In this document: one piece after another, positions 1-59,089 of the stretch | How positions within the stretch are numbered: the first letter of the stretch is position 1 | Layout: every line of letters begins with the position of its first letter | Assembly: GCA_963842525.1 (NCBI GenBank) | Contig: CAWJGT010000014.1 | Coordinates: 96,001-160,000 of the forward strand | Source: an uncultured Holophagales bacterium | GTDB lineage: Bacteria > Acidobacteriota > Thermoanaerobaculia > Multivoradales > UBA5704 | Direction: 5' to 3' | DNA length: 64,000 nt | Program-made: the position numbers and the translations under genes | The notes under the pieces: model-generated | What the model was told of the DNA's origin: nothing | The model's input: the letters and a program-made list of their open reading frames with translations, nothing else | Database searches by the model: none

Positions 1-14966
<14,966 letters not shown>

Positions 14967-46905: not shown

Positions 46906-46933
46906 GTCCAACACGCCGCACCTGAACCGTGTC
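46906..46933 (+). promoter_or_regulatory. Conserved bipartite motif, copy 1 (putative ECF promoter), upstream of the CHAT-SAVED/sigma unit
   Basis: GTCCAACA-cgccgcacctgaa-CCGTGTC, ending 23 nt before ATG 46957. Confidence 0.8.
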
Positions 46934-46956: not shown

Positions 46957-48906
46957 ATGGAATATCAGGACTTCACGATCGATGTACGCTCGGCCGAGGG
47001 GGGGCGATTCGAGGCCAGGGTGATCGACGCGCCGCTCGGCGGCAACCCCCGGGTGTTTTTCCCTCCTCCCCTCTCCCAGGAGGATCTGAAGACCCTGCAC
47101 GGGCTCTTCGACGGGTCGGGCAAGGAGGCGCCGGAGAAACCCTCGCCGAAAGCCCTGGCCCGCCAGATGGGGCAGCAGCTTCACACCGCTCTTTTTCGCG
47201 ACGGCGTGGCCGAGCTCTACCAGAAATGCCGGGCCACGCTCCTGAGCGACAAGAACACCGGGCTGCGGCTCCGGCTCAAATTCCAGCTCAAGGATACGGA
47301 GGCCGGCTACCTGGCTGCCCTCCCTTGGGAATGGCTGTGCGACCCCGCCTCCTGCGAGCTCCTGGCGACAGACCCGTGCACGCCCGTGGTGCGAGACATC
47401 GCCGTTCCCCGGCCCCAGGGGACTCTCGAAGTGGCAGGACCCCTGCGCGTCCTCGTCGTCGCCTCAGCCTCCAGCGACATGGGCCTCGACCTGGAGCAGG
47501 AGATCGAGCGGATGGCCGCGGCGCTCAAGCCTCTCGAAGAGTCCGGCAAGGTGAAGCTGGTCCGGCTCGCGACGGCTGACCCGAACGCTCTCCGCGAAGC
47601 CCTCAAGGACGACAAGATCCACGTCCTCCACTTCATGGGCCACGGCGGTTACGATCCCGAGTCCGGCAACGGCGCAGTCATCTTCGCGCAGGAGGGCGCG
47701 GGCAAGGACCAGGTCAGCGGAGAGCCGTTCGCCACCTATCTGAAGGAGCTTCCCAGCTTGCGCCTCGTGGTGCTCAACGCCTGCAAGACCGCGCGGTATG
47801 CCAGCCGGCGAGGCCCCTCGCTCAACCACGGCCTGGCCCCGGTCGTCCTGGAACGCACCCGGGTGCCCGCCGTGGTGGCGAACCAGTACACCATCTCCGA
47901 CACGGCCGCCATTGCCTTCAGCGAGACCTTCTACCGCCGCATCGCCAAGGGGGACCCGGTCGACGAGGCCCTCACCGAGGCACGGTTGCAGCTCTACCGG
48001 ACGAGTGCCGAATGGGCGACGCCGGTCCTCTTCCTCGCCGCACCGCACGGCAGGCTCTTCGCCCTGGGAGCGGCGCGCTCCGACAACGGACTCGTGCACC
48101 GTGAGAAAACCGAGATGATCCGCCTGGGAGTGCGGAGCTTCGATGGATTCGGCGGCGACATGAAGGCACGTAACGAGGCGGTCCTCGAGCTGGCCGGCTA
48201 TTTCGACGGCCGCTATATCAAGCGGAAGGAAGACTGGCAGGAGAAGATCTTCCCGGAGCTGCGAGCATTCCTCCTGAGATGGATCGATCCGCACCGGCCC
48301 CTGCTGCTCGATTTCGCCGCTCATTCCTCGATCGCTTTTGCTGCCGGCTGGGTCCTGGAGCCCAAGAGCGGCCTCGATGTGCGGGTATCACAACGCATCT
48401 CGGGAGAAGGGGTGCTCGATTGGCATCCCAAGGACGGCACGGAGCCGGACGGCTCTCTCTGGCTCGACCGGCCTGACATCGAGCTCGACCCCGAGGCTCC
48501 GGATGTGGCCCTGGCCCTCTCGGCGAGCCAGCCGGACGTGGCCGGCCACGTGCAGGACTTCGTCCAGCGCAAGAGCCTCTCGATCGGGCGGATCGTGGAC
48601 GCAACGGTTGCTCCCGAGCCCGGTCCCCACTCGGTACGCGGCGGAGCGCACGCCTTGGGCCTCGCCCAAGCGCTCCTCCCCCGCCTGCGGCCCAGGAAGC
48701 CTCACGAACGCAAGGGCCGCACCCACCTCTTCTGCGCCGCTCCCAATGCTCTCGTCTTCTACCTGGGACAGCTCGCGTCCTCGCTGGGGAGAGTCGTCCT
48801 CTACGAATTTGCCTTCCGTGCGGAGGATTCGTTCGGGCGGTATCAACAATCCATCGAGCTGCCACCACCCGGCGAAGCCTCTCAGATTCCAGGCGACGAC
48901 TGGTAA
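46957..48906 (+). CDS. CHAT (caspase-like) protease fused to a C-terminal SAVED cyclic-oligonucleotide sensor
   Basis: LPWEWL, catalytic HFMGHGG and VVLNACKT, EWATPVLF. SAVED-like part: LGVRSF..YFDGRYI, AAHSSIAFAAGW, HLFCAAPNALVFYLGQ..LYEF. AGGAGG RBS. Confidence 0.9.
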   Translation: MEYQDFTIDVRSAEGGRFEARVIDAPLGGNPRVFFPPPLSQEDLKTLHGLFDGSGKEAPEKPSPKALARQMGQQLHTALFRDGVAELYQKCRATLLSDKNTGLRLRLKFQLKDTEAGYLAALPWEWLCDPASCELLATDPCTPVVRDIAVPRPQGTLEVAGPLRVLVVASASSDMGLDLEQEIERMAAALKPLEESGKVKLVRLATADPNALREALKDDKIHVLHFMGHGGYDPESGNGAVIFAQEGAGKDQVSGEPFATYLKELPSLRLVVLNACKTARYASRRGPSLNHGLAPVVLERTRVPAVVANQYTISDTAAIAFSETFYRRIAKGDPVDEALTEARLQLYRTSAEWATPVLFLAAPHGRLFALGAARSDNGLVHREKTEMIRLGVRSFDGFGGDMKARNEAVLELAGYFDGRYIKRKEDWQEKIFPELRAFLLRWIDPHRPLLLDFAAHSSIAFAAGWVLEPKSGLDVRVSQRISGEGVLDWHPKDGTEPDGSLWLDRPDIELDPEAPDVALALSASQPDVAGHVQDFVQRKSLSIGRIVDATVAPEPGPHSVRGGAHALGLAQALLPRLRPRKPHERKGRTHLFCAAPNALVFYLGQLASSLGRVVLYEFAFRAEDSFGRYQQSIELPPPGEASQIPGDDW

Positions 48907-48927
48907 TGCGCCGAGGCCCGATCAACG

Positions 48928-48985
48928 TTCCCCCTCTCCCGGCGGGGGATGGGCGGAAGATGGGAGAGGGGGCCAGGGGGTGAGG
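48928..48985. repeat. Half copy of repeat family A between CHAT-SAVED and the sigma gene
   Basis: CCCCTCTCCCGG...GGGAGAGGGGGCCAGGGGGTGAGG. Confidence 0.8.
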
Positions 48986-49031
48986 TCTCTCTCTGGCGGA
49001 AGGGAGGCTTCTGTGGAAAGCTACCTCCGGC

Positions 49032-49643
49032 ATGCCGCCGAACACAGCCTGTACCGAGGACGAGAAGATCCGAGCAGCCATCCGGGCCCTCCAGGCCGGG
49101 GCCGGCCCCGACGCCTTCGCGGCCGTCTTCCGGCGCTTCTACCGGCCGCTCTACAACTTCTTTTCCAATCGCCCCGTCCTGCGCCAGGAGGCCGACGACC
49201 TCACCCAGGTCACGTTGATCCGCGCCCTGCAGAACATCCTGCAATACCGTTGCGAAGCGAATTTCGAGGCATGGCTCCTGCGCATCGCGGAAAACGTCTG
49301 GAACAACACCGTCCGCGATCAGCTCGCGGTCAAGAGAGGTGCGCGCCTGACCACCCAGGAGCCGGAAGCCGACGACGGTCCGCAGCTCCCGGCCGGCAAA
49401 GCCCCCGGCCCCGAAGAGCTGGTCCTGGCGGAAGAGCGGACACGGGTGCTGCGGCAAGCGATCGACACCCTGCCGCCGGGGATGCGCACATGTACCGAGC
49501 TGCGCCTCTACGGAGACCTCGAATACCAGGAGATCGCCGAGGTCACGGGGATCGGCCTCAACAGTGTACGCTCTCAGCTCTTCGAGGCGCGAAAACGCCT
49601 CAGGCCCGTCCTGGAGGAGTATTTCCAGGACGCCACATTCTGA
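49032..49643 (+). CDS. ECF RNA polymerase sigma factor
   Basis: Region 2: ADDLTQVTLIRA..FEAWLLRIAEN. Region 4: IDTLPPGMR..LEYQEIAEVTGIGLNSVRSQLFEARKRL. Confidence 0.95.
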   Translation: MPPNTACTEDEKIRAAIRALQAGAGPDAFAAVFRRFYRPLYNFFSNRPVLRQEADDLTQVTLIRALQNILQYRCEANFEAWLLRIAENVWNNTVRDQLAVKRGARLTTQEPEADDGPQLPAGKAPGPEELVLAEERTRVLRQAIDTLPPGMRTCTELRLYGDLEYQEIAEVTGIGLNSVRSQLFEARKRLRPVLEEYFQDATF

Positions 49644-49652
49644 GGGACCCGC

Positions 49653-50486
49653 GTGGGCGGACAGGAAGACTTCGCCAAGGCGCTCAAGGCCATCATGGCT
49701 GCGAAGCGTGAGGAGCTGGGAGAGCCCCCGACCCCGGAGGAGCTGCTCGCCTATCGGGACGGCCGGCTGGACCCGGGCGGCAGGGAACGGATGGAGGCCC
49801 GGATCGCCGTCCACCCCGACGCCGCCCGCGCCCTGGCCGACCTCGCCGCCTTCCCCGCCGTGGAGCCGGCGCCCGGCACGCCGGAGCTGACCGACGAGGA
49901 CCTCGACGTGCGTTGGCAGGCGTTCCGCCAGCGCGTGGCGGCGCTCCCGCCGGCCCCTCACCCCCCTGCCCCCCTCTCCCATCGCACTCCCACCGACCGG
50001 GAGAGGGGGGGAAAAACCGAAGGCCGGCGCCGGCGGCTCTTCGCTCCGCGGCTGGCGGCAGCAGCCGTGCTGGCCCTGGCGGCCGGCTGGGCCGGCGGCT
50101 TCCTGACCGGGCGGGCCTCGCACGACCGCCCCGGCTCGGCCGTCAACATCGACATCGTCGAGCTCACCCCGGAAAAAGAAGGCGGCGACCGCTCGCCGGC
50201 CGCCGCGGTGGAGATGCCGGCCGAAGAGCTGGTGCTGATCCTGGGTGCGCCAGAGGAAGGCGGCTTCGCTAACTACGAAGCCCGGATCGTGGACGCGCAA
50301 GGCTCCCCCGTCTGGTCCCGAACGGGCCTCCACCCCACGCCTCTGGGGACTTTTCACCTCTCCTTCCAGCGGGGCGCTCTGCAGCCGGGGACCTATGGCA
50401 TCCTCCTCTTCGGCCAGGAGGGGAAGCGCAGGAAGCCGGTCGCCACCTATGAGCTGCGTCTCCAGGAGGGACCGGCAAGCCGGTGA
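49653..50486 (+). CDS. Putative single-pass membrane anti-sigma factor (degenerate zf-HC2-like N-terminus)
   Basis: Lies directly after the sigma gene. PTPEELLAYRDGRL..RERMEARIAVHPDA, TM segment LAAAAVLALAAGWAGG, and an extracytoplasmic beta-rich C-terminus. Carries an in-frame half repeat at 49954-50011. Confidence 0.8.
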   Translation: MGGQEDFAKALKAIMAAKREELGEPPTPEELLAYRDGRLDPGGRERMEARIAVHPDAARALADLAAFPAVEPAPGTPELTDEDLDVRWQAFRQRVAALPPAPHPPAPLSHRTPTDRERGGKTEGRRRRLFAPRLAAAAVLALAAGWAGGFLTGRASHDRPGSAVNIDIVELTPEKEGGDRSPAAAVEMPAEELVLILGAPEEGGFANYEARIVDAQGSPVWSRTGLHPTPLGTFHLSFQRGALQPGTYGILLFGQEGKRRKPVATYELRLQEGPASR

Positions 50487-50688
50487 CCTCACCCCCTGGC
50501 CCCCTCTCCCATCTCCCTTCCACCCCCCGCCGGGAGAGGGGGGACGTAGCGGAGGCGTTCGTGGCGAGCCCGATGTCAGCACGTTTCGAGGCGCAGGACC
50601 CCGACCGTGCCTCAGGTGCCTCAACCGCGTCCCCCCTCTCCCGGGGAAAGGGCGGGAGGGAGACGGGAGAGGGGGACAGGGGGTGAGG
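50487..50688. repeat. Palindromic repeat family A, full copy, filling the anti-sigma/TPR-CHAT junction
   Basis: CCTCACCCCCTGG...GGGGGTGAGG, from the anti-sigma TGA to the next GTG. Confidence 0.9.
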
Positions 50689-53646
50689 ACCTCCGCTGCC
50701 GCCCTCCTCCTCCTCCTCTCCTGCGGCCACCCGCCCGCTGAAACGGTCAACCTCACCCCCGGCGCCGTCCACCCCCGGACCCTCACCGGCCGCGGCCCTT
50801 ATCTCTTCCAATTTCAGCTTCCCGCCGATCGTTTCCTCCGCCTGGACATCGAGCAGCGCGGCGTGGACGTGGTCGTCCTATTGCGCGATCCCGCCGGCCG
50901 TCTCCTCTACGAGGTGGACAGCCCCAACGGCACCGAGCGCGCCGAGCCGGTCCTCGCGGTCACCCCGGTCTCCGGCGAGCACTTGTTGATCGTCGAGCCG
51001 CTCCACCCCGAGGCACGAGGCGATTTCGCCCTGGTCGTCCGCGAGGTCCGGCCGGCCACCCAGGGGGACCGGGTGCGGGCCGCCGCCGCCACCGCGTTCG
51101 CCCGCGCCGAGCGGCGCCGGCTGGAGGGCGACCTGGACCGCGCGGGAATCGACTACCGCAAGGCGCTGCCTCTCCTTGAGGCTTGCGGCGAGCGACGGCA
51201 GGCGGCCGAGGCGCAATGGCACCTCGGCGAAGCCCTCCTCGAAGCCGCCGAGCTGCGGCAGGCGGCGGCGGTCCTGGAACAGGCCGCGGCGCGGTTCCGC
51301 GCCCTGGGCGACCGTCCCGGCGAGGCCCACGCTCTCAACGACCTCGGCGCCGCCTGGAGGCTCCTCGGCGACCCCGAGCCGGCGCTGGCCGCGTACCAAC
51401 GCGCGCTGCACCTTTTTCGCGCCGCGGGGCTCCGCCGGGACGAGGCCTCGACGCTCAACAACATCGGCCTGCTCTTCAAGGGCACCGGCGACCTCCAGGG
51501 CGCACTCAATCACTTCGAGGCGGCTCTCGCCCTCTGGCGTCCTCTCCAGGCGAAGTCGTCCGAAGCGGCGACCCTGGAAAACCTGGGAAGCCTCCACACC
51601 CTGATCGGACAGGACGACGAGGCCCTGGGCTTCCTCCAGGAGGCCCTCCGCCTCCGCGCAGGCGAAAAAGACCTGCGCAAGCGGGCCTCGGTCCTGATCG
51701 AGCTCGGCTGGTCACAATATTGGGCCGGCCATCCGGAGCTGGCCCTGGACCACTACCGCGATGCCATCGCGCTGGCCGAGCGCGCGGGGGACCGCCTGCG
51801 CCAGGCGGGCGCCTGGGACCGCCGCGGATCGGCGCTGCGAGCGCTCCACCGCTACGACGAAGCCGCCGCGTCCTATGCGCGAGCCCTGGCTATGAGCCGC
51901 GCCGCGGGAAGCCGGCTCCACGAGGGGCATATCCTGGCCAACCTCGGAGAGCTCGACCTCGAGACGGGCGCCGTCGAGCGCGGCCGGCAGCGCCTGCAGA
52001 GGGCCGCCGACTTCCTGACCGCGAGCGGCGATCCCAACGCCGTGATTTCCGCCCGCGTCAGCCTCGGCCGAGCCGAACGGCGCCTGGGCCGTTTCGGCCC
52101 GGCGCGCAAGCAGGCCGAAACCGCCATCCGCCTCGTCGAGAGCCTGCGCACCGGCCTCCGCGGCCCCATGAGCCGCGGCAATTTCCTGGCGACCCGCATC
52201 GGCGCCTACGAAGAGCTGGCAACCCTCCTGATGCAGCTCGACCGCACCCGCGAAGCACTGGAGGTCGCGGAGCGCGCCCGCGCCCGCAATCTCCTGGAGG
52301 ACATCCGGGAGGAAAACAGAGAGTGTGTCGAAAGCGCGTCGCGAGCCCGGGAAACCCTCACCCCCGACCCCTCTCCCAACCGCACTCCCGACCTCCGGGA
52401 GAGGGGAGCCCCCACCCAAAAGCCTTTTCCGCAGTTTCGCTTCCCCCCTCTCCCGGTGGCCAGGGAGTGCGGATGGGAGAGGGGGGCCAGGGGGGTGAGG
52501 GCCCTGACCGCCAACGAGATCCAGGCCCTGGCCGACGACGGCACCCTCCTCGTCGTCTATCTCCTGGCCGAGCCCGCGAGCTTCGCCTGGACCGTCCACC
52601 GCAAGACCGTGGCCTCCCATACCCTCGCCGGGAGAGAGCGCATCGAAAAGCTCGCCCGCCGGGTGATCCACGCCATGCCCCACAGCCACGAAGTCGCTGG
52701 CCAGGGCACCGCCACGCGAGCAGCGCAGGAGCTTGCGGACGCCATCCTCGCGCCCCTCGGCGAGCGCCTGGCCGGCCGGCAACGCCTCGTGATCCTCGCC
52801 GACGGAGCCCTGCACCTCGTCCCCTTCGCCGCCCTGCCTGGGAGCACCGGCGAGCCGCTCCTGGCCGATCACGAGATCGTAATGGTCCCCTCCGCCACGG
52901 TGCTCCAGGCACAGCGCCGCCGCTTCGCCGGACGGCCCCCCGCACCGGAGCTGGCCGCCATCCTGGCCGATCCAATCTTCTCGCCGACGGACGAACGCCT
53001 CCAGTTCCCCCTCTCCCGGGGGAAGGGGGGGCGATGGGAGAGGGGGCCAGGGGGTGAGGGGCCAGCCCTCGAACGCCTGCCCTACACCGCGACCGAGGCC
53101 GAAGACATCGTCCGCCTCATCCCTCGCGGACAGGCACTCCTGGCCCTCGGACCCGCCGCAAGCCGGGACCTCGTCCTGGCCGGCGGCCTGCGGCGCTATC
53201 GCATCCTCCATTTCGCGACCCACGGCCTGCTGCACCCGGTCCTGCCCGAACGCTCGGGCATCGTCCTCTCGCTGTTCGATGAGAAAGGAAAACGCCTTGA
53301 CGGATTCCTCTCTGCGCCGGACGTCGCGGCGTTGGACCTCCCCGCCGAGACGGTGGTCCTGAGCGCCTGCCAGACCGGCCTCGGCCGCGAGATGCGGGGC
53401 GAAGGCCTGGTCGGCCTCACTCATGCCTTTTTCCGCGCCGGAGCCCGCCGCGTCGTCGTGAGCACCTGGAAGGTCCGCGACCGCGCCACGGCCGAGCTCA
53501 TGGCCCGCTTCTACCGCCACCTCCTCGGCGACGGCCTGCCGCCCGCCGCCGCGCTGCGGGCTGCCCAGCTTTCCATCCGCAACGAACCGCAGTGGCACGC
53601 CCCCTACTTCTGGGCCGGCTTCTCCCTCCAGGGCGATTGGCAATAA
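50683..53646 (+). CDS. Lipoprotein TPR-CHAT protease
   Basis: Signal/lipobox VRTSAAALLLLLSC, PPC-like domain (EQRGVDVVV..VDSPNG), TPRs (LNDLG, LNNIG, LENLG, LANLG), CHAT dyad HFATHG / VVLSACQTGLG, APYFWAGF. Confidence 0.92.
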   Translation: MRTSAAALLLLLSCGHPPAETVNLTPGAVHPRTLTGRGPYLFQFQLPADRFLRLDIEQRGVDVVVLLRDPAGRLLYEVDSPNGTERAEPVLAVTPVSGEHLLIVEPLHPEARGDFALVVREVRPATQGDRVRAAAATAFARAERRRLEGDLDRAGIDYRKALPLLEACGERRQAAEAQWHLGEALLEAAELRQAAAVLEQAAARFRALGDRPGEAHALNDLGAAWRLLGDPEPALAAYQRALHLFRAAGLRRDEASTLNNIGLLFKGTGDLQGALNHFEAALALWRPLQAKSSEAATLENLGSLHTLIGQDDEALGFLQEALRLRAGEKDLRKRASVLIELGWSQYWAGHPELALDHYRDAIALAERAGDRLRQAGAWDRRGSALRALHRYDEAAASYARALAMSRAAGSRLHEGHILANLGELDLETGAVERGRQRLQRAADFLTASGDPNAVISARVSLGRAERRLGRFGPARKQAETAIRLVESLRTGLRGPMSRGNFLATRIGAYEELATLLMQLDRTREALEVAERARARNLLEDIREENRECVESASRARETLTPDPSPNRTPDLRERGAPTQKPFPQFRFPPLPVARECGWERGARGVRALTANEIQALADDGTLLVVYLLAEPASFAWTVHRKTVASHTLAGRERIEKLARRVIHAMPHSHEVAGQGTATRAAQELADAILAPLGERLAGRQRLVILADGALHLVPFAALPGSTGEPLLADHEIVMVPSATVLQAQRRRFAGRPPAPELAAILADPIFSPTDERLQFPLSRGKGGRWERGPGGEGPALERLPYTATEAEDIVRLIPRGQALLALGPAASRDLVLAGGLRRYRILHFATHGLLHPVLPERSGIVLSLFDEKGKRLDGFLSAPDVAALDLPAETVVLSACQTGLGREMRGEGLVGLTHAFFRAGARRVVVSTWKVRDRATAELMARFYRHLLGDGLPPAAALRAAQLSIRNEPQWHAPYFWAGFSLQGDWQ
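52355..52501. repeat. Family A full copy (147 bp), in-frame inside TPR-CHAT
   Basis: Translates as LTPDPSPNRTP...GWERGARGVR between the TPR and CHAT regions. Confidence 0.88.
53005..53060. repeat. Family A half copy, in-frame in the CHAT-domain loop
   Basis: Translates as FPLSRGKGGRWERGPGGEG before LERLPYT. Confidence 0.85.
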
Positions 53647-53651
53647 AGACC

Positions 53652-53679
53652 GTCCAACAAATCTCCGGCAACCCGTGTC
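53652..53679 (+). promoter_or_regulatory. Conserved bipartite motif, copy 2, upstream of the small peptide gene
   Basis: GTCCAACA-aatctccggcaac-CCGTGTC. Confidence 0.8.
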
Positions 53680-53742
53680 GGAGCAGGTAGAAGCAGAAAC
53701 CACCGGCCCCTGCCGGGCCGGAGGGATCGAAAGGAGCCCCCC

Positions 53743-53961
53743 ATGCCGACCCATCCCATCCTCTCGACAGGCCCCTTCCTCGCCGACCCTGAGCCCATTG
53801 ATGAACAGACCGGTGGGGGACCCAAAGTGGGCCGCGACGAGCCGATCCAACCGGAAGAGGACGTGGTGCGTATCGGTGAGGAAAACCCCGGCGGGCCACA
53901 GACAGGTGGAACCGTCAAGACCGGTCGCACAAAGCCGATCCAACCTGAAACGGAGGACTGA
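53743..53961 (+). CDS. 72-aa acidic peptide with two QTGGxxKxGR..PIQPE repeats
   Basis: AAGGAG RBS, its own promoter-like motif, an internal duplication and a downstream hairpin. Confidence 0.7.
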   Translation: MPTHPILSTGPFLADPEPIDEQTGGGPKVGRDEPIQPEEDVVRIGEENPGGPQTGGTVKTGRTKPIQPETED

Positions 53962-53968
53962 AAGCAGC

Positions 53969-54055
53969 CCCCCTGGGAGCGCGGGCGTCTCGCCCGCCCG
54001 GAGCCGAGCCGTCATATCGAGCCGCCAGCGGGCGGGACGCCCGCGCTCCCAGGGG
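53969..54055. repeat. REP-like hairpin, possible terminator, between the peptide gene and cas6
   Basis: CCCCTGGGAGCGCGGGCGTCTCGCCCGC ... GCGGGCGGGACGCCCGCGCTCCCAGGGG. Confidence 0.75.
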
Positions 54056-54081
54056 CCGCTGCCAACCACTTTGACCGGGCC

Positions 54082-54109
54082 GTCCAACAAATTCCGGACA
54101 GTCCGTGTC
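54082..54109 (+). promoter_or_regulatory. Conserved bipartite motif, copy 3, upstream of the cas operon
   Basis: GTCCAACA-aattccggacagt-CCGTGTC, ending 64 nt before the cas6 ATG. Confidence 0.8.
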
Positions 54110-54173: not shown

Positions 54174-55082
54174 ATGCAAGGACTCCAGCCCACCTCTCCC
54201 CTTCCCACCATCCCCCATCTCCGCCTGGAGGTGACCCTCCGGGCGGAGGAGCCGGCGACGCTCCCTGCCTTCCACGGCTCGATGCTGCGCGGCGCCTTTG
54301 GGCACGCTCTGCGCCGGTCGGTCTGTTCCATGGGGCCGGCGCAGGCGTGCGAGACCTGCACGTTGCGCCGGCCCTGCATCTACACGCGGATTTTCGAATC
54401 GTTCGTCGAAGGCGAGCCGCCGCCGTTCCTGCGCGGGATCGATCAGGCGGTCCGTCCCTATCTCTTCGAGCCCAAAGGCGGAGCGGGCCGGCTGGAGCCC
54501 GGCGAGCCCTTGCGCTTCGACCTGCTGCTCTTCGGCCAGGCCGTGGACCTCCAGGCGTACGCCGTTCTGGCGATCCGCCGCATGGCGCAGTCGGGGCTCG
54601 GCGCCGGCCGTGCCCGCTTCCGGCTCGATCACATCGAAATGCGGGAATCGCCGGCCCTCCAGGACGCTCCGCTCCCGGACGGGCCGGTCACCCTCCGTTT
54701 CGTCACACCCCTGCGCATCAAGATCCGCGACCAGCTCGCCGATCGATTCCGATTCCGGGACCTCGCCTTTCACATGCTGCGGCGCACGCTGGAGCTCGCC
54801 CACACCCACGTCCCCGGCGCGCCGGTCGACTGGAGCTTCCAGCCCCTGCTCCGGAAGGCCGACGCCGTCCAGGCCACCGCCGCCAGCCTCCGCTGGCACG
54901 ACTGGGAGCGCTGGAGCCAGCGCCAGCAGACCCGCATGAAGCTCGGCGGCGTCGTGGGCACCCTGACGCTCGACGGCGACCTCTCACCTTTTACATCCCT
55001 GCTGCGCACCGCCGAGGTGATCCATGTCGGCAAGGGGACCACGTTCGGGCTGGGGAAGATGAGGATCGAGGCAGCGGCATGA
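54174..55082 (+). CDS. cas6: CRISPR pre-crRNA endoribonuclease Cas6
   Basis: GSMLRGAFGHAL, Cys cluster C..CETC..CIY, FVTPLRIK, C-terminal G-rich loop HVGKGTTFGLG. Confidence 0.93.
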   Translation: MQGLQPTSPLPTIPHLRLEVTLRAEEPATLPAFHGSMLRGAFGHALRRSVCSMGPAQACETCTLRRPCIYTRIFESFVEGEPPPFLRGIDQAVRPYLFEPKGGAGRLEPGEPLRFDLLLFGQAVDLQAYAVLAIRRMAQSGLGAGRARFRLDHIEMRESPALQDAPLPDGPVTLRFVTPLRIKIRDQLADRFRFRDLAFHMLRRTLELAHTHVPGAPVDWSFQPLLRKADAVQATAASLRWHDWERWSQRQQTRMKLGGVVGTLTLDGDLSPFTSLLRTAEVIHVGKGTTFGLGKMRIEAAA

Positions 55083-56848
55083 ATCACGAGAAATCCGAAA
55101 CCAGAGAATCCAGCAGCCGCCATGTGGCGGATGTGGCCAAGCGGGCACTATCGCCTCACTTCAGCGATGGTGAGGTCCCGCCCGCGCTCCTCGAAGCGGT
55201 CGCCGCCGGCCAGGGCAATCGCGAAGAGGTGCGCCGCATCACCGAGAAGGCCTGCGGCTCCGGCAAGCCTTTCGATCTGGTGCTCTTCGACACAGACCGG
55301 ATCAGCGACTATGTCTTCGAGTCGAGCCGGCCACCGGTCATTGCCGGAGCCTCCAAAATCCTTGACGATCTCAACCAGTCGATCGGCGACGAGTATCGGG
55401 ACAGCACGATCTATTCCGGCGGCGGCGAGGGCATCCTGCTGGTCCTGAGAGGAGACGGCGAACGGATCTGCTCCGAGATCGAGGAGCGCTTCCGCACGAA
55501 GACCGATGGCGCCCTGACGGTCACCACGGGCTGGCTGGAGATCTCGCCTCACGATTTCATCGCGACGACACCGCGAGGAGAGGCGGACAACGGAGCCCGC
55601 CTTGTCTCGGGCACGCAGGCGGTCCTCTCGCGCTTGCGCGATCTGGTCCGAGAGAAGAAGGATGGCCGGTCCGACTTCCGCTCTCCCGTGCACGCCGAGA
55701 GCGAGCGCTGTGCCTCCTGCCGGGACCGGAAAGCCGACTCCATTCCGATCAAGTTCTATCGGGATGAGGTCGGGCGTATCTGCGAGCCTTGTTGGGTCCG
55801 GTGGGGTGTGGGCAAGGAGCTCATCGAGGGGTGGTCTTTCGACGAGCTGGCGGAAAAGTACCAGAAGGCCCTCGGATCGGAAGGCGCCAAGACGCGCTAT
55901 CTCGGCTTCGTCTACGCCGACGGCAACTCGATGGGCGCGCTCTTCGGTCGCCTCGAATCTCTGTCCGACCTGCGCTTCCTGAGCCATTCGGTCCGCGACG
56001 CTTTCGCCATGACGAGGGGGCAGGTAAAGGAAGAGGTGCAGCGGCTGGTCCCGGTGCCAGGAGGCTTTCCTCTCCTCAGCTATCTCGGCGGCGGTGACGA
56101 GGCGATCTGGATCCTTCCCGCCGCGCTGGCCGTTCACATCACGGAAAAGCTGCCGCTGTGGGTCGAGGCTGCGTCACAGCGCATCCCCGATTTTCTGACG
56201 GTTCTGAAGCATCATGGAGTTTCCCGCGTGACGCTGGGCACCGGCCTGGTGATCTGCGATCTGGGCTACCCGGTGCGCTATCAGTACCGGCTCGCGAAGG
56301 ACCTCCAGAAACGCGCCAAGGCGATGTTCTACGCCCGGCAGACAGCCGATGTAACCTCTTCGCTCGACTTCGAGGTCCTGACGGACTCTTCGCCACTGAG
56401 CGATGAGCTCGGCGCGGTCCGCGAGCTCGCGTACAAGACCGCCGACTCCGACTTCCTGCGTACCTGCCGCCCCTACACGGAGCGCGGTTTCCAGGAGCTC
56501 CTCAACCGGATGCGCCAGGCCCGCGCACCCCGCAACGGGAACGGCAAGGTGGTGCGTAAGCCCATCGCCAATTCCCAGCTTTACGGATTGCAGAGCGGCG
56601 CCGCAGAAGGCAAGGCGGTGTTCCTCAACTATCTCCGCTATCAGCTCGCCCGCAAGCCCGCCGGCCCCACCATTCAAGACTGGATGGACGCCTTCAATCA
56701 CAAGTGGACCGATCCTCAGGACGTCGAAAGATTTTTCGTGGACGCCGCGGAGGGCGGCAAGACCGGCACGTGGATCCCGGACGGCCTGCAGCTCGCGCCG
56801 TTTCTCGATCAGCTCCGCAAGCTGGAAGACGCGAAGGAGCGCCGCTGA
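55079..56848 (+). CDS. cas10: Cas10 large subunit of a type III system, lacking the HD domain, with a GGDE palm motif
   Basis: FDTDRISDYVFES..IAGAS, YSGGG, Zn finger CASC/CEPC, YADGNSMG, YLGGGDE, LQKRAK, LDFEVL..RPYT. ATGA overlap with cas6. Confidence 0.9.
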   Translation: MNHEKSETRESSSRHVADVAKRALSPHFSDGEVPPALLEAVAAGQGNREEVRRITEKACGSGKPFDLVLFDTDRISDYVFESSRPPVIAGASKILDDLNQSIGDEYRDSTIYSGGGEGILLVLRGDGERICSEIEERFRTKTDGALTVTTGWLEISPHDFIATTPRGEADNGARLVSGTQAVLSRLRDLVREKKDGRSDFRSPVHAESERCASCRDRKADSIPIKFYRDEVGRICEPCWVRWGVGKELIEGWSFDELAEKYQKALGSEGAKTRYLGFVYADGNSMGALFGRLESLSDLRFLSHSVRDAFAMTRGQVKEEVQRLVPVPGGFPLLSYLGGGDEAIWILPAALAVHITEKLPLWVEAASQRIPDFLTVLKHHGVSRVTLGTGLVICDLGYPVRYQYRLAKDLQKRAKAMFYARQTADVTSSLDFEVLTDSSPLSDELGAVRELAYKTADSDFLRTCRPYTERGFQELLNRMRQARAPRNGNGKVVRKPIANSQLYGLQSGAAEGKAVFLNYLRYQLARKPAGPTIQDWMDAFNHKWTDPQDVERFFVDAAEGGKTGTWIPDGLQLAPFLDQLRKLEDAKERR

Positions 56849-58700
56849 TGCCAAAGCTCGAAATCACTCTTCACGGGCATCTGCTCGTCGCCGGAGGCCA
56901 AGCCGCGGCTCTCGGCGTCGATCTCGCCACGGCCCAGCGCTTCGACGAGAAGGGCGAGCTGGTGCCCTACATCCCCGCCACCGCCCTGCGCGGTGCGGTC
57001 CGCCTTCAGCTCGAATCACTCCTGGCCGGCACGAATCATCCGGACATCGGTCCCTATCCGCGTGATGTGGAAGGCGAAACCCGCGAGGGCTTCGATACTC
57101 CGATCGCCCGTCTCTTCGGCTACTCCGGCAAGAAGGGTGCAAGAAACGGCGCCAGGGAGGGAAGCCTCCGCTTTTCGGATGCCCTGCCGAAAGATCCCAA
57201 GAGTGCCGCCCAGGCGCTGGGCGTACGGCCTGGGCTCGAGATCAATGATTTCACCTCGACTGCCGAGGAGCAGAAGCTCTTCTTCCGCGAGCTGGTTGAA
57301 ACCTCGGCCGAGCCGCTCGTTTTCACTGCCGATCTCGATCTCAACAAGCAGGTCTCTAAAGAAGATCGAGACAGCTTGCAAGCCGCGGTCGAGAGCACGG
57401 ACTCGATCGGCGCCGGCAAGGCCAAGGGCGGCGGCTTCGTCTCGATCCGCTGGATCGACGAGACCGGGAAACAGCCAGAGGACAAGCAGGAAGAGAATGC
57501 GCCTCCTTCAGGTTTCCTAGGGGACCCGTCAGCCGCCACGCGGGTACGGTTGCTTCTCACGCTGACCGAGCCGGCCCATTTCGGAGACGGCGGCCCGCAG
57601 GGCAACCATCACGGTAGCCGCACTTTCATCCCGGGTGCAACCGTCCGCGGCGCCATCGCCTGGGCACTCCTGCGCAACGGGGTCGCCCCCCAAGACCCAG
57701 CCTTCCAGAGCCTTTTTATGAAGGCCGGGAGCTTCGGCGACGCCCTCCCCACTCTCGATCCGGACGAGGAGCCCGTGATCTATCCCGCTACAGCGCGGAA
57801 ACGCCGAGGGGGCGAGGAAGAGATCAAGGACATCCTTGTCACGGAGGCTCGCCCGCCAACAGATCAACGAGCAGCCCGACGGCGTCTTTCTCCGATCGGA
57901 CGACGGCGATGCCCGCTTCGATCCTGTCCCGGCTCGCCCCGACCCGGGCCTTATCCGGCGCCTGCGCACCCGGGTCTCCATCGACCGCCACACCGGCACC
58001 GCAGCCGATGGCCGCCTCTTCACCATCGAACAGGTCGAGCCCTGGCTAGCCCCGAAGAATCACCAGAAACCGCGCAGGACCACGTTCGTCTGCCGCGTCG
58101 AAAACCTGGATCAGTCCGCCGCGGAGCTGCTTGCCTTGGCCGCGGACCTGCCGATCCTGATCGGCGCGGGTCGCAACCATGGGATGGGGCGCGCCCTCCT
58201 GCAGGTACACTTCGAGGCTGAAGAAACCATCGAGAATGCGGAGCTGCGAGTCCTGAAGCTCACAGGCCTCGTTCGCCAGGAAGCCGTACGCCTCGCCCGC
58301 CATGCCGGCCTCCCCCATCCGGAGGACGCGGCAAACCACGGCCAAGCCGTTCTCGCATTGCTTGCGCTATCGGACTTCGTACCGTCCCACCCAGAGGCGG
58401 CGCATCCGCTGGCCGAGCTCGCGGAGCCTGGCTTACAGGATATCCATCCACTCCGTCGCTTCCTTAACCCGGGACAGGTCGGCGGCTACAACCAGCTCGT
58501 CGAGGGGGGTGCCCTCAAGGACCTCGCCCCGTCCGTCGGAGCGGGAAGCGTCTTCGTCTATCGCATTCAACGGCAGGGCCTGACACCGCTGCTTGACCGG
58601 CTCCTCCCGCGGCTGCGCCGGGGAGTGGGCCGTGACTGCGCCAGCGGCTGCGGCCGGTTCGGTCTGTTCGAGCCATTTTTTCCAAGGAGAAGAAGGATGA
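56848..58700 (+). CDS. Multi-RAMP Cas7-Cas5 fusion (Csx10-like, type III-D); frameshift near 57850 and a probable extra T near 58680
   Basis: PYIPATALRGAVR..LFG..LRFSDA, IGAGKAKGGG; FIPGATVRGA, RTRVSIDRHTGTA, IGAGRNHGMG, GAGSVFVY, GVG..SGCGRF. Confidence 0.82.
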
Positions 58701-59089
58701 GCGCTGAGCCTGAAGTTGGAAGCAAATCCTGGTTGGTCGGCAGAGCCGAGAATATCCTCGGGAACCAAGTGCCGAGAAATCAGGCATCTCAGTTGCGGAA
58801 CCTTGTTCAGATCACACAGAAGGAATCCGAAGTGCCCGTCCTTGCGAACTTCATCCGCTATCAGGCTGGCCGGAAAGCTACGGGCGGATTCTGGCGCCCG
58901 ATCCACAAGCAGGTCATCGAAGTCCTCCAGAAGATCGAGGAGAAGTTCCCTGCCGAGGACGAGCGCAAGGCCGCCATTCAGAATTTCTTCGGTTACATGG
59001 TACGGCACTATGTCTATCTCGAGGGTGCCGGCGAGAGAGGCTCAACATCATCCAAGCCGAAAGGAGGAGCGCCTCATGGACGCAACTGA
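58697..59089 (+). CDS. Putative Cas11 small subunit (Csm2-like)
   Basis: All-helical 130 aa; SQLRNLV..VLANFIRYQAGR..W..FFGYMVR. AAGGAG RBS; positioned between RAMP genes. Confidence 0.75.
   Translation: MSAEPEVGSKSWLVGRAENILGNQVPRNQASQLRNLVQITQKESEVPVLANFIRYQAGRKATGGFWRPIHKQVIEVLQKIEEKFPAEDERKAAIQNFFGYMVRHYVYLEGAGERGSTSSKPKGGAPHGRN

Follow-up and report, generated by a model that had tools for sequence, protein, structure and literature searches.

What could a leaderless peptide of 72 residues do between the gene of a predicted exported protease and cas6? The question is raised by 64,000 nucleotides of an uncultured Holophagales genome (the window, meaning the whole stretch that was analysed), in which an earlier note had pointed out a small two-repeat ORF. 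That note had offered two roles for it, a repeated recognition site for a CHAT protease, acting as decoy inhibitor or activator, and a cytoplasmic alarm peptide that is released on lysis and sensed by the exported TPR-CHAT of neighbouring cells.

The peptide ORF, its promoter box and its neighbours

The locus reads, all on the forward strand, box, CHAT-SAVED, ECF sigma factor, anti-sigma factor, TPR-CHAT, box, peptide, box, cas6, cas10-like gene, RAMP genes, TIR-SAVED, box and CRISPR leader. The CHAT-SAVED protease (46957..48906; Pfam CHAT and SAVED) shows no visible signal peptide and keeps its catalytic His and Cys (alignment A8). It is followed by the ECF sigma factor (49032..49643; Pfam sigma r2/r4), whose four closest titled relatives, at 56-62% identity, come from Thermoanaerobaculia or uncultured Acidobacteriota, by a predicted single-pass anti-sigma factor, P0009 (49653..50486), and by the TPR-CHAT protease (50683..53646), which has a lipoprotein-type signal, LLLLLSC, and an intact His/Cys dyad. 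Beyond the peptide lie cas6 (54174..55082), a cas10/cmr2-like gene (55079..56848; palm2), type III RAMP genes in five RAMP-matching frames (56848..62472) and a TIR-SAVED effector (62469..63728), all recognised by Pfam. At 589 aa the cas10-like gene is short, with GGDE replacing the palm motif GGDD, and the RAMP matches at 56848-59909 are scattered over overlapping frames, which suggests frameshifts or assembly errors. Past the window, an RT-like ORF, a cas1-like fragment and cas2, labelled by eye, are found between CRISPR arrays (C14:161859-163237).

The ORF itself (P0001, 53743..53961) translates into 72 residues that include both repeats quoted in the earlier note. Repeat 1 (residues 22-40, 53806..53862) carries the conserved K28 and R31, repeat 2 covers residues 53-71 (53899..53955), and the N-terminal family motif, here PFLAD, occupies residues 11-15 (53773..53787). 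Twelve of 19 residues are identical between the repeats, a value reached in 0 of 2000 shuffles (shuffle maximum 9), and the 19 codon pairs comprise 7 identical ones, 5 synonymous and 7 non-synonymous differences. The ribosome binding site that had been claimed can be read from the sequence as AAAGGAG (53730..53736), 6 nt 5' of the ATG, and the claimed absence of a signal peptide holds, the top 9-residue hydropathy being 1.47. A Pfam scan of the peptide gave zero family matches, and the codon-model score of -0.8 is neutral, which was counted against coding.

The hairpin that had been noticed 3' of the ORF (53964..54062, no strand assigned) is real, with a strong fold (z = -7.8), but it is not specific to the peptide gene. 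Because it lacks a U-tract and one arm has 127 matches genome-wide, it was classed as a long, dispersed REP-like palindrome and rejected as a dedicated terminator. Other REP-like palindromes lie between or inside island genes (48908-48986, 49950-50015, 50486-50690, 52360-52490 and 52998-53062), and one arm pattern matches 448 times in the genome. Those inside the anti-sigma and TPR-CHAT genes are in frame and modelled as disordered, and TPR-CHAT seems to take its GTG start from one palindrome.

An ECF-type box, GTCCAACA-N13-CCGTGTC, precedes the peptide ORF (53652..53679), where copy 2 had been described before, and is the second of four forward-strand copies in the window; the others lie 5' of the operon running from SAVED-CHAT to TPR-CHAT (46906..46933), 5' of cas6 (54082..54109) and at the start of the CRISPR leader (63872..63899), whose array begins just past the window end. 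The same AA-n16-CGT spacing is seen in the DdvS promoters mapped in Myxococcus xanthus (available part of PMC6061681), which have GTAA where the box has CCAA. The exact box occurs nine times in the 9.9 Mb genome with identical spacing (reversed-genome control, 0), and all nine copies sit 5' of defence functions, namely SAVED-CHAT, the peptide, cas6 and six CRISPR leaders. Within the family it is present in 10 of 92 genomes (21 matches versus 3 for the reversed pattern). The adjacent ECF sigma factor presumably reads these boxes, and since three of the six boxed leaders are located on other contigs, one sigma factor may control every array of that repeat type. Box-headed leaders in the genome (G000) were recorded at C12:86263(-), C22:91059(+), C3:978886(+), C14:163247 and C14:166567; two of those elsewhere in the genome head just a remnant or a one-spacer array.

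Conservation of the peptide gene and its counterparts in other modules

Orthologous islands were located via the sigma factor, independently of the peptide; among 300 genomes of the order, 21 places exceeded 230 bits. A peptide gene with ribosome binding site and box-like promoter accompanies the SAVED-CHAT, ECF sigma, anti-sigma and TPR-CHAT genes at 17 of them, counting one island (L025) whose peptide is found on another contig of that genome and one (L122) with a frameshifted copy; at the remaining four the contig ends inside or before the TPR-CHAT gene. Conservation beside homologous CHAT loci, which the earlier note had proposed as a test, was thus found with the box retained. The gene stands directly after TPR-CHAT in ten islands, divergently before the cas operon in six and after a CBASS insert in one. 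Start, ribosome binding site, box and stop are kept at all 16 intact copies, relocated ones included, and the presence of the box at relocated copies indicates that the peptide gene travels with its own promoter. CBASS genes (CD-NTase, E1, JAB, SAVED) are inserted at L127:12879-16295, L040:5001-7866 and L123:6207-7349, the last insert having its own box, as in the DdvS island. One island (L128) holds two near-identical, individually boxed peptide genes (7228-7383 and 11993-12151).

A first protein search returned five homologues with 67-87% identity, one of them with a single repeat. Across 19 aligned peptides the Lys is invariant and the Arg is present in 18, and what is conserved is the protein sequence, Arg being encoded by four different codons. 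The family core is K-x2-4-R-xxx-[VIL]-x-P in one or two copies: in the 20 repeat units having both residues, Lys and Arg are spaced by 2-4, and 17 of these units have Val, Ile or Leu four residues past the Arg. Of the consensus quoted earlier, the ends (QTGG and PIQPE) are lineage-specific; TGG is present in just four of the 19 rows. Beside the core, an N-terminal [WFL]-x-A-[DE] motif was detected by regular expression in 13 of 16 island peptides and reappears, weakened, ahead of second repeats. When 1.84 billion representatives were searched with a profile, 25 proteins came back, each of 35-80 aa; 24 were fetched, and among the 16 new to the query alignment the K...R core is present in 15 and the N-terminal motif in 13. 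A hydrophobic stretch is absent from all 30 family members (all below 1.6 hydropathy). Peptides from another family of the order (L139:5791-6153 and L140:3874-4239(-)) share the K...R core and a very similar box, and these two, together with L135:12633-12947 and L196:4066-4251(-), carry four to six tandem cores.

Searches with the single peptide sequence reached a best E of only 0.003 in 100 relatives, gave zero matches in JGI metagenome contigs and in viral contigs, detected no paralogue in its own genome, and in the ESM Atlas yielded only matches below 0.8. DNA contigs of three runs contained only pieces of relatives, one X3 contig covering the TPR-CHAT end, the box and the peptide start. 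The family is not described in the searched libraries or in the searched literature on CHAT/ECF/anti-sigma systems (mostly open-access papers). The peptide is thus a real, conserved small gene with a promoter-like box, and its family is absent from these libraries and papers.

This conservation bears on the view that the ORF encodes a precursor for enzymatic modification, such as a graspetide-like RiPP, or no functional protein at all. In graspetide RiPPs an ATP-grasp ligase is encoded beside the precursor, and the leader-like motif and the Thr/Lys- and Asp/Glu-rich repeated cores of the peptide presumably resemble such precursors; no ATP-grasp ligase or other modifying enzyme was found among the 17 window proteins scanned, and the graspetide interpretation was dropped. 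The neutral codon score and the frameshifted copy in L122 would suit this view, against which stand amino-acid conservation over four Arg codons and the intact start, ribosome binding site, box and stop of 16 copies, and it is regarded as very improbable.

Small ORFs are also found at other modules. The genome itself has 63 CHAT matches, and the last gene at several of its ECF/anti-sigma/TPR-CHAT modules is a small ORF rich in Pro, Gly and acidic residues. Four such peptides with other cores lie at C23:84649-84867(-), C3:257873-258007(+), C23:143759-143926(-) and C9:936236-936391(-), three of them preceding C25-like or caspase-like genes. From 149 anti-sigma loci, 60 further ones were taken in score order, skipping those already included or probably short of downstream sequence. 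A small polar ORF (within 260 nt, RBS-led, at most 130 aa, without hydrophobic stretch) follows 52 of the 70 TPR-CHAT gene ends that had sufficient sequence, taken over all loci, versus 98 of 2610 control genes of the genome, counts that are descriptive because the genomes are kin within one order and hence not independent, and that come from a filter scoring seven relocated orthologues as misses and passing at least one doubtful ORF (L155). Internal repeats are detectable in 13 of the 52, in up to five or six copies and with module-specific cores. One Lys motif for all paralogous peptides was considered and given up as just marginal (41 of 52; shuffles mean 33, maximum 41). At L165:5408-5635, L171:4257-4526(-), L174:5200-5514 and L166:5581-5853 a small helical protein replaces the peptide, its polar tail often bearing a Lys-Thr-Gly-like motif.

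The gene next to these peptides brings in the strongest rival of a lysis alarm, namely that its target is the SAVED-CHAT of the producing cell itself, which it would serve as decoy substrate, as a threshold inhibitor comparable to securin or PCi, or as a substrate with a downstream effect. The gene that follows 42 paralogous peptides encodes a CHAT, caspase or C25-like protein in 19 cases (the C25 label is weak, above the Pfam cut-off in 2 and extended to the rest by alignment A9), something else in 12, and is absent within 700 nt in 11. Compartment and promoter box are common to peptide and SAVED-CHAT, SAVED-CHAT is encoded in every peptide island, and in six islands the peptide gene lies away from TPR-CHAT and is divergent from SAVED-CHAT. 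In Haliangium ochraceum, a CHAT-SAVED protease, a sigma factor and a small protein likewise lie beside type III CRISPR, and the SAVED-CHAT channel is said to fit unstructured peptides, according to the available text of 10.1101/2023.06.23.546230. The PCaspase and kinase of that cascade differ in being unseen here: no PCaspase or PCk gene was found among the scanned window proteins or recognised in the islands (where Pfam covered few of the unlabelled genes). PCi has a predicted CI-2 inhibitor fold in the same partial source, whereas the island peptide is short and polar and has no Pfam match. On the other side, 23 of the 42 paralogous modules have no clan CD protease as next gene (the next gene alone being inspected), which makes the TPR-CHAT switch, and not a cytoplasmic protease, the common neighbour; moreover, the class of the partner shifts (CHAT, C14, C25-like) while the switch stays constant. 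Action on SAVED-CHAT is considered rather unlikely.

The putatively exported TPR-CHAT and a split DdvA-like switch

An N-terminal hydrophobic signal was found in 55 of 61 long TPR-CHATs, 34 of them with a lipobox. The model of the window protein (pLDDT 90.9) has Csx29, separase and DdvA as best fold matches, and the best natural matches of its TPR repeats are the LGN/Pins proteins, whose repeats bind peptides in extended form. At positions 2, 5, 9, 12 and 13 of the repeat, which are taken here to face the groove, entropy rises from 0.93 bits in 15 orthologues to 3.10 in 51 paralogues, compared with 0.83/1.63 bits at core positions and 1.13/2.35 at other positions. Judged from these alignments, the variation has the form expected of receptors that each recognise the ligand of their own module, a feature that action on SAVED-CHAT would leave unexplained. 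A complex of TPR-CHAT (965 aa) and a 34-aa piece carrying repeat 1, predicted without folded controls, scored 0.00 twice, with partner pLDDT below 50, and weighs on neither side.

The substrate of this protease would be the anti-sigma factor. P0009 has no Pfam match and combines N-terminal helices, a hydrophobic segment (modelled with low confidence) and a C-terminal beta domain; its anti-sigma role is inferred from gene position and architecture. Its Arg180 is invariant in 19 of 19 orthologues and is predicted to lie in a loop between two strands of the outer domain. TPR-CHAT keeps Glu784 (helix alpha1) and Asp912 (after the fifth strand, in loop L5; alignment A6 numbering). The Asp of the WxVxD motif had also been assumed to be separase's P1-Arg aspartate. 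Neither PMC9729208, which equates the position of Csx29 K670 with that aspartate, nor the alignment supports this assignment, and the TPR-CHAT residue aligned to K670 is Ala, which counts against a basic P1. Such a preference is predicted from Glu784 and Asp912, since basic-P1 clan CD enzymes bear acids in the helix alpha1 and loop L5 regions (available part of PMC4357240).

By eye, the peptide seemed strikingly similar to the Arg loop of the anti-sigma factor, and the near-invariant Arg (18 of 19) and the repeats resemble competing sites for a predicted basic-P1 protease. An inhibitor or decoy substrate of the periplasmic TPR-CHAT could be built in this way, and its own box would make it rise after induction and act as negative feedback. 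The mimicry found no support: profile comparison gives an hhalign probability of 0.05%, and when anti-sigma sites are ranked by likeness to the peptide core, the invariant Arg takes first place in just 2 of 19 rows (0.7 expected) and a place among the top three in 6, no more than chance. Lacking an export signal, moreover, the peptide would be kept out of the periplasm as long as the cell is intact. This negative feedback is considered unlikely, and of the recognition claim in the earlier note the link to CHAT stands through genomic context, while the decoy has lost support where it could be examined.

The switch as a whole resembles DdvS/DdvA of M. xanthus. According to the accessible text of PMC6061681 and PMC11506125, both have an ECF sigma factor, a membrane anti-sigma factor and an extracytoplasmic TPR-CHAT, several promoters of AA-n16-CGT spacing (putative ones in the island, with a different -35 element) and a regulon of CHAT-SAVED, type III CRISPR and CBASS, the last represented here in L040, L123 and L127 only; DdvA is also among the top fold matches of the island TPR-CHAT. 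In contrast to DdvA, the island TPR-CHAT is a separate lipoprotein-type gene not fused to the anti-sigma factor, and P0009 has no Cys and hence no CHCC zinc site. With both fusion and zinc site missing, the island is best described as a split variant. The available part of PMC11506125 describes no peptide signal for DdvA; its authors state that the activating signal was not found and anticipate that a protein is perceived in the periplasm. In the DdvA operon, the same text places a protein without known function between ddvA and a C25-type peptidase, and this slot is occupied by peptides in 13 of 42 paralogous modules here. No DdvA-type island was found in 401 Myxococcota genomes searched or in 29 regions inspected. 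Eight Myxococcota CHAT loci, with a called CHAT ORF in four, had no ECF/anti-sigma pair or polar peptide and are a weak control.

In RRNPPA systems such as Rap-Phr, too, the gene of a TPR receptor precedes that of its small cognate peptide, cores are duplicated in tandem and receptor-peptide pairs have diversified (consulted portions of PMC11343458 and PMC5199041). The order of receptor and peptide, the peptide's own promoter and the tandem cores would thus parallel an actively exported pheromone, a density or kin signal read by TPR-CHAT, with an export route outside the island; the N-terminal [WFL]-x-A-[DE] motif could then be a recognition site for a transporter or peptidase. The topology is inverted, however: a propeptide with signal sequence and a cytoplasmic receptor are the rule in the RRNPPA descriptions available, whereas here the receptor is exported and the peptide leaderless, and the predicted output is anti-sigma proteolysis instead of phosphatase or DNA-binding control. 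Apart from the missing Sec signal, no exporter was recognised in the scanned part of the window or, by eye, across the islands, and the N-terminal motif recurs before second repeats, unlike a one-time leader. Double-glycine leader peptides have a conserved GG cleavage site and a C39 exporter; with TGG in so few rows and no exporter among the scanned window proteins, a leader of this kind was discarded. A pheromone is considered quite improbable.

A proposed lysis alarm and its possible meaning for defence

The inner membrane separates a leaderless peptide from an exported receptor, and the simplest use of such a pair would be to report lost membrane integrity; for this reason the alarm released on lysis was chosen as the model. 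Of the two roles offered by the earlier note, it is the best fit to the compartments and to the wider pattern, and its mechanism is a prediction from sequence. That the peptide is the cognate signal by which the periplasmic TPR-CHAT is activated after membrane damage, leading to anti-sigma cleavage and CRISPR induction, is judged plausible, if somewhat short of probable. The peptide would be produced in the cytoplasm and retained as long as the cell is intact. Upon membrane damage or lysis it would escape, and its K...R...V-x-P core would bind the TPR groove of TPR-CHAT on neighbouring cells and activate the CHAT domain of this predicted periplasmic protease. TPR-CHAT would then cut the anti-sigma factor at Arg180. 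Intramembrane proteolysis would come next, a step that has been proposed for DdvA (in the available text of PMC11506125 it is shown for a truncated DdvA). The freed sigma factor would drive transcription of the cas genes, the arrays and the SAVED effectors and, through the peptide's own box, of more peptide in a positive feedback. Tandem repeats might raise the dose or widen the specificity. As an optional step, which the model does not need, SAVED-CHAT activated by cOA may trim the precursor before release.

Several features favour the lysis alarm. The partner is constant (17 of 21 islands, and a small ORF after 52 of 70 TPR-CHAT ends), and the compartments differ, with 30 of 30 peptides leaderless and 55 of 61 TPR-CHATs bearing a signal. 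The repeated cores and the TPR grooves vary from module to module, the box is confined to defence (9 of 9), an invariant Arg loop in the anti-sigma factor is matched by acids at the basic-P1 positions of the protease, and a periplasm-sensed protein signal is what the authors of the DdvA work expect (PMC11506125, available part). The alarm is weakened by links that are all of genomic context, drawn from kindred and hence non-independent genomes of a single order, by the cytoplasmic SAVED-CHAT that is encoded in all 17 islands too, by the 19 of 42 paralogous peptides directly 5' of a clan CD protease gene, which fit an intracellular role equally well, by the Ala at the K670-aligned position, the marginal Lys motif and the neutral codon score, and by the possibility that the peptide takes a non-classical export route.

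Two systems described elsewhere offer a comparison. Plant PROPEP1/Pep1 is, as a functional analogy only, likewise a leaderless unstructured precursor that is sensed outside and amplifies immunity, and a metacaspase, a clan CD protease of the cytosol, cleaves PROPEP1 behind an Arg (PMC13157962, in the part available). There is no homology between the two, the receptor is a kinase there and TPR-CHAT here, and the steps for the bacterial peptide are predicted. By analogy with the metacaspase, the lysis alarm and an action of SAVED-CHAT on the peptide can be combined. In Bacillus subtilis, a danger signal activates the ECF sigma factor SigX in uninfected neighbours of infected cells; the accessible text of 10.1101/2021.02.16.428622 calls this signal unidentified and reports wall modification as output, with no CHAT protease or dedicated peptide gene.

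The peptide gene is, as far as sequence comparison can tell, tied to a DdvA-like defence switch in a split variant. It provides a concrete candidate signal for a TPR-CHAT of the DdvA type; the peptide can be synthesised, its receptor and the cut site are predicted, and a promoter for a reporter is available. If the peptide acts on SAVED-CHAT instead, it would be the missing substrate or inhibitor of SAVED-CHAT islands that have no PCaspase. If the alarm is real, it would be a genetically encoded bacterial damage signal akin to plant Pep1, with many module-specific pairs of peptide and receptor. For the Thermoanaerobaculia it can tentatively be proposed that each module has one type of cytoplasmic alarm peptide, released by lysis and read by the periplasmic caspase-like receptor of neighbouring cells, that the circuit of this island would prime type III CRISPR, arrays and SAVED effectors before infection, and that the DdvA signal may be of the same kind.
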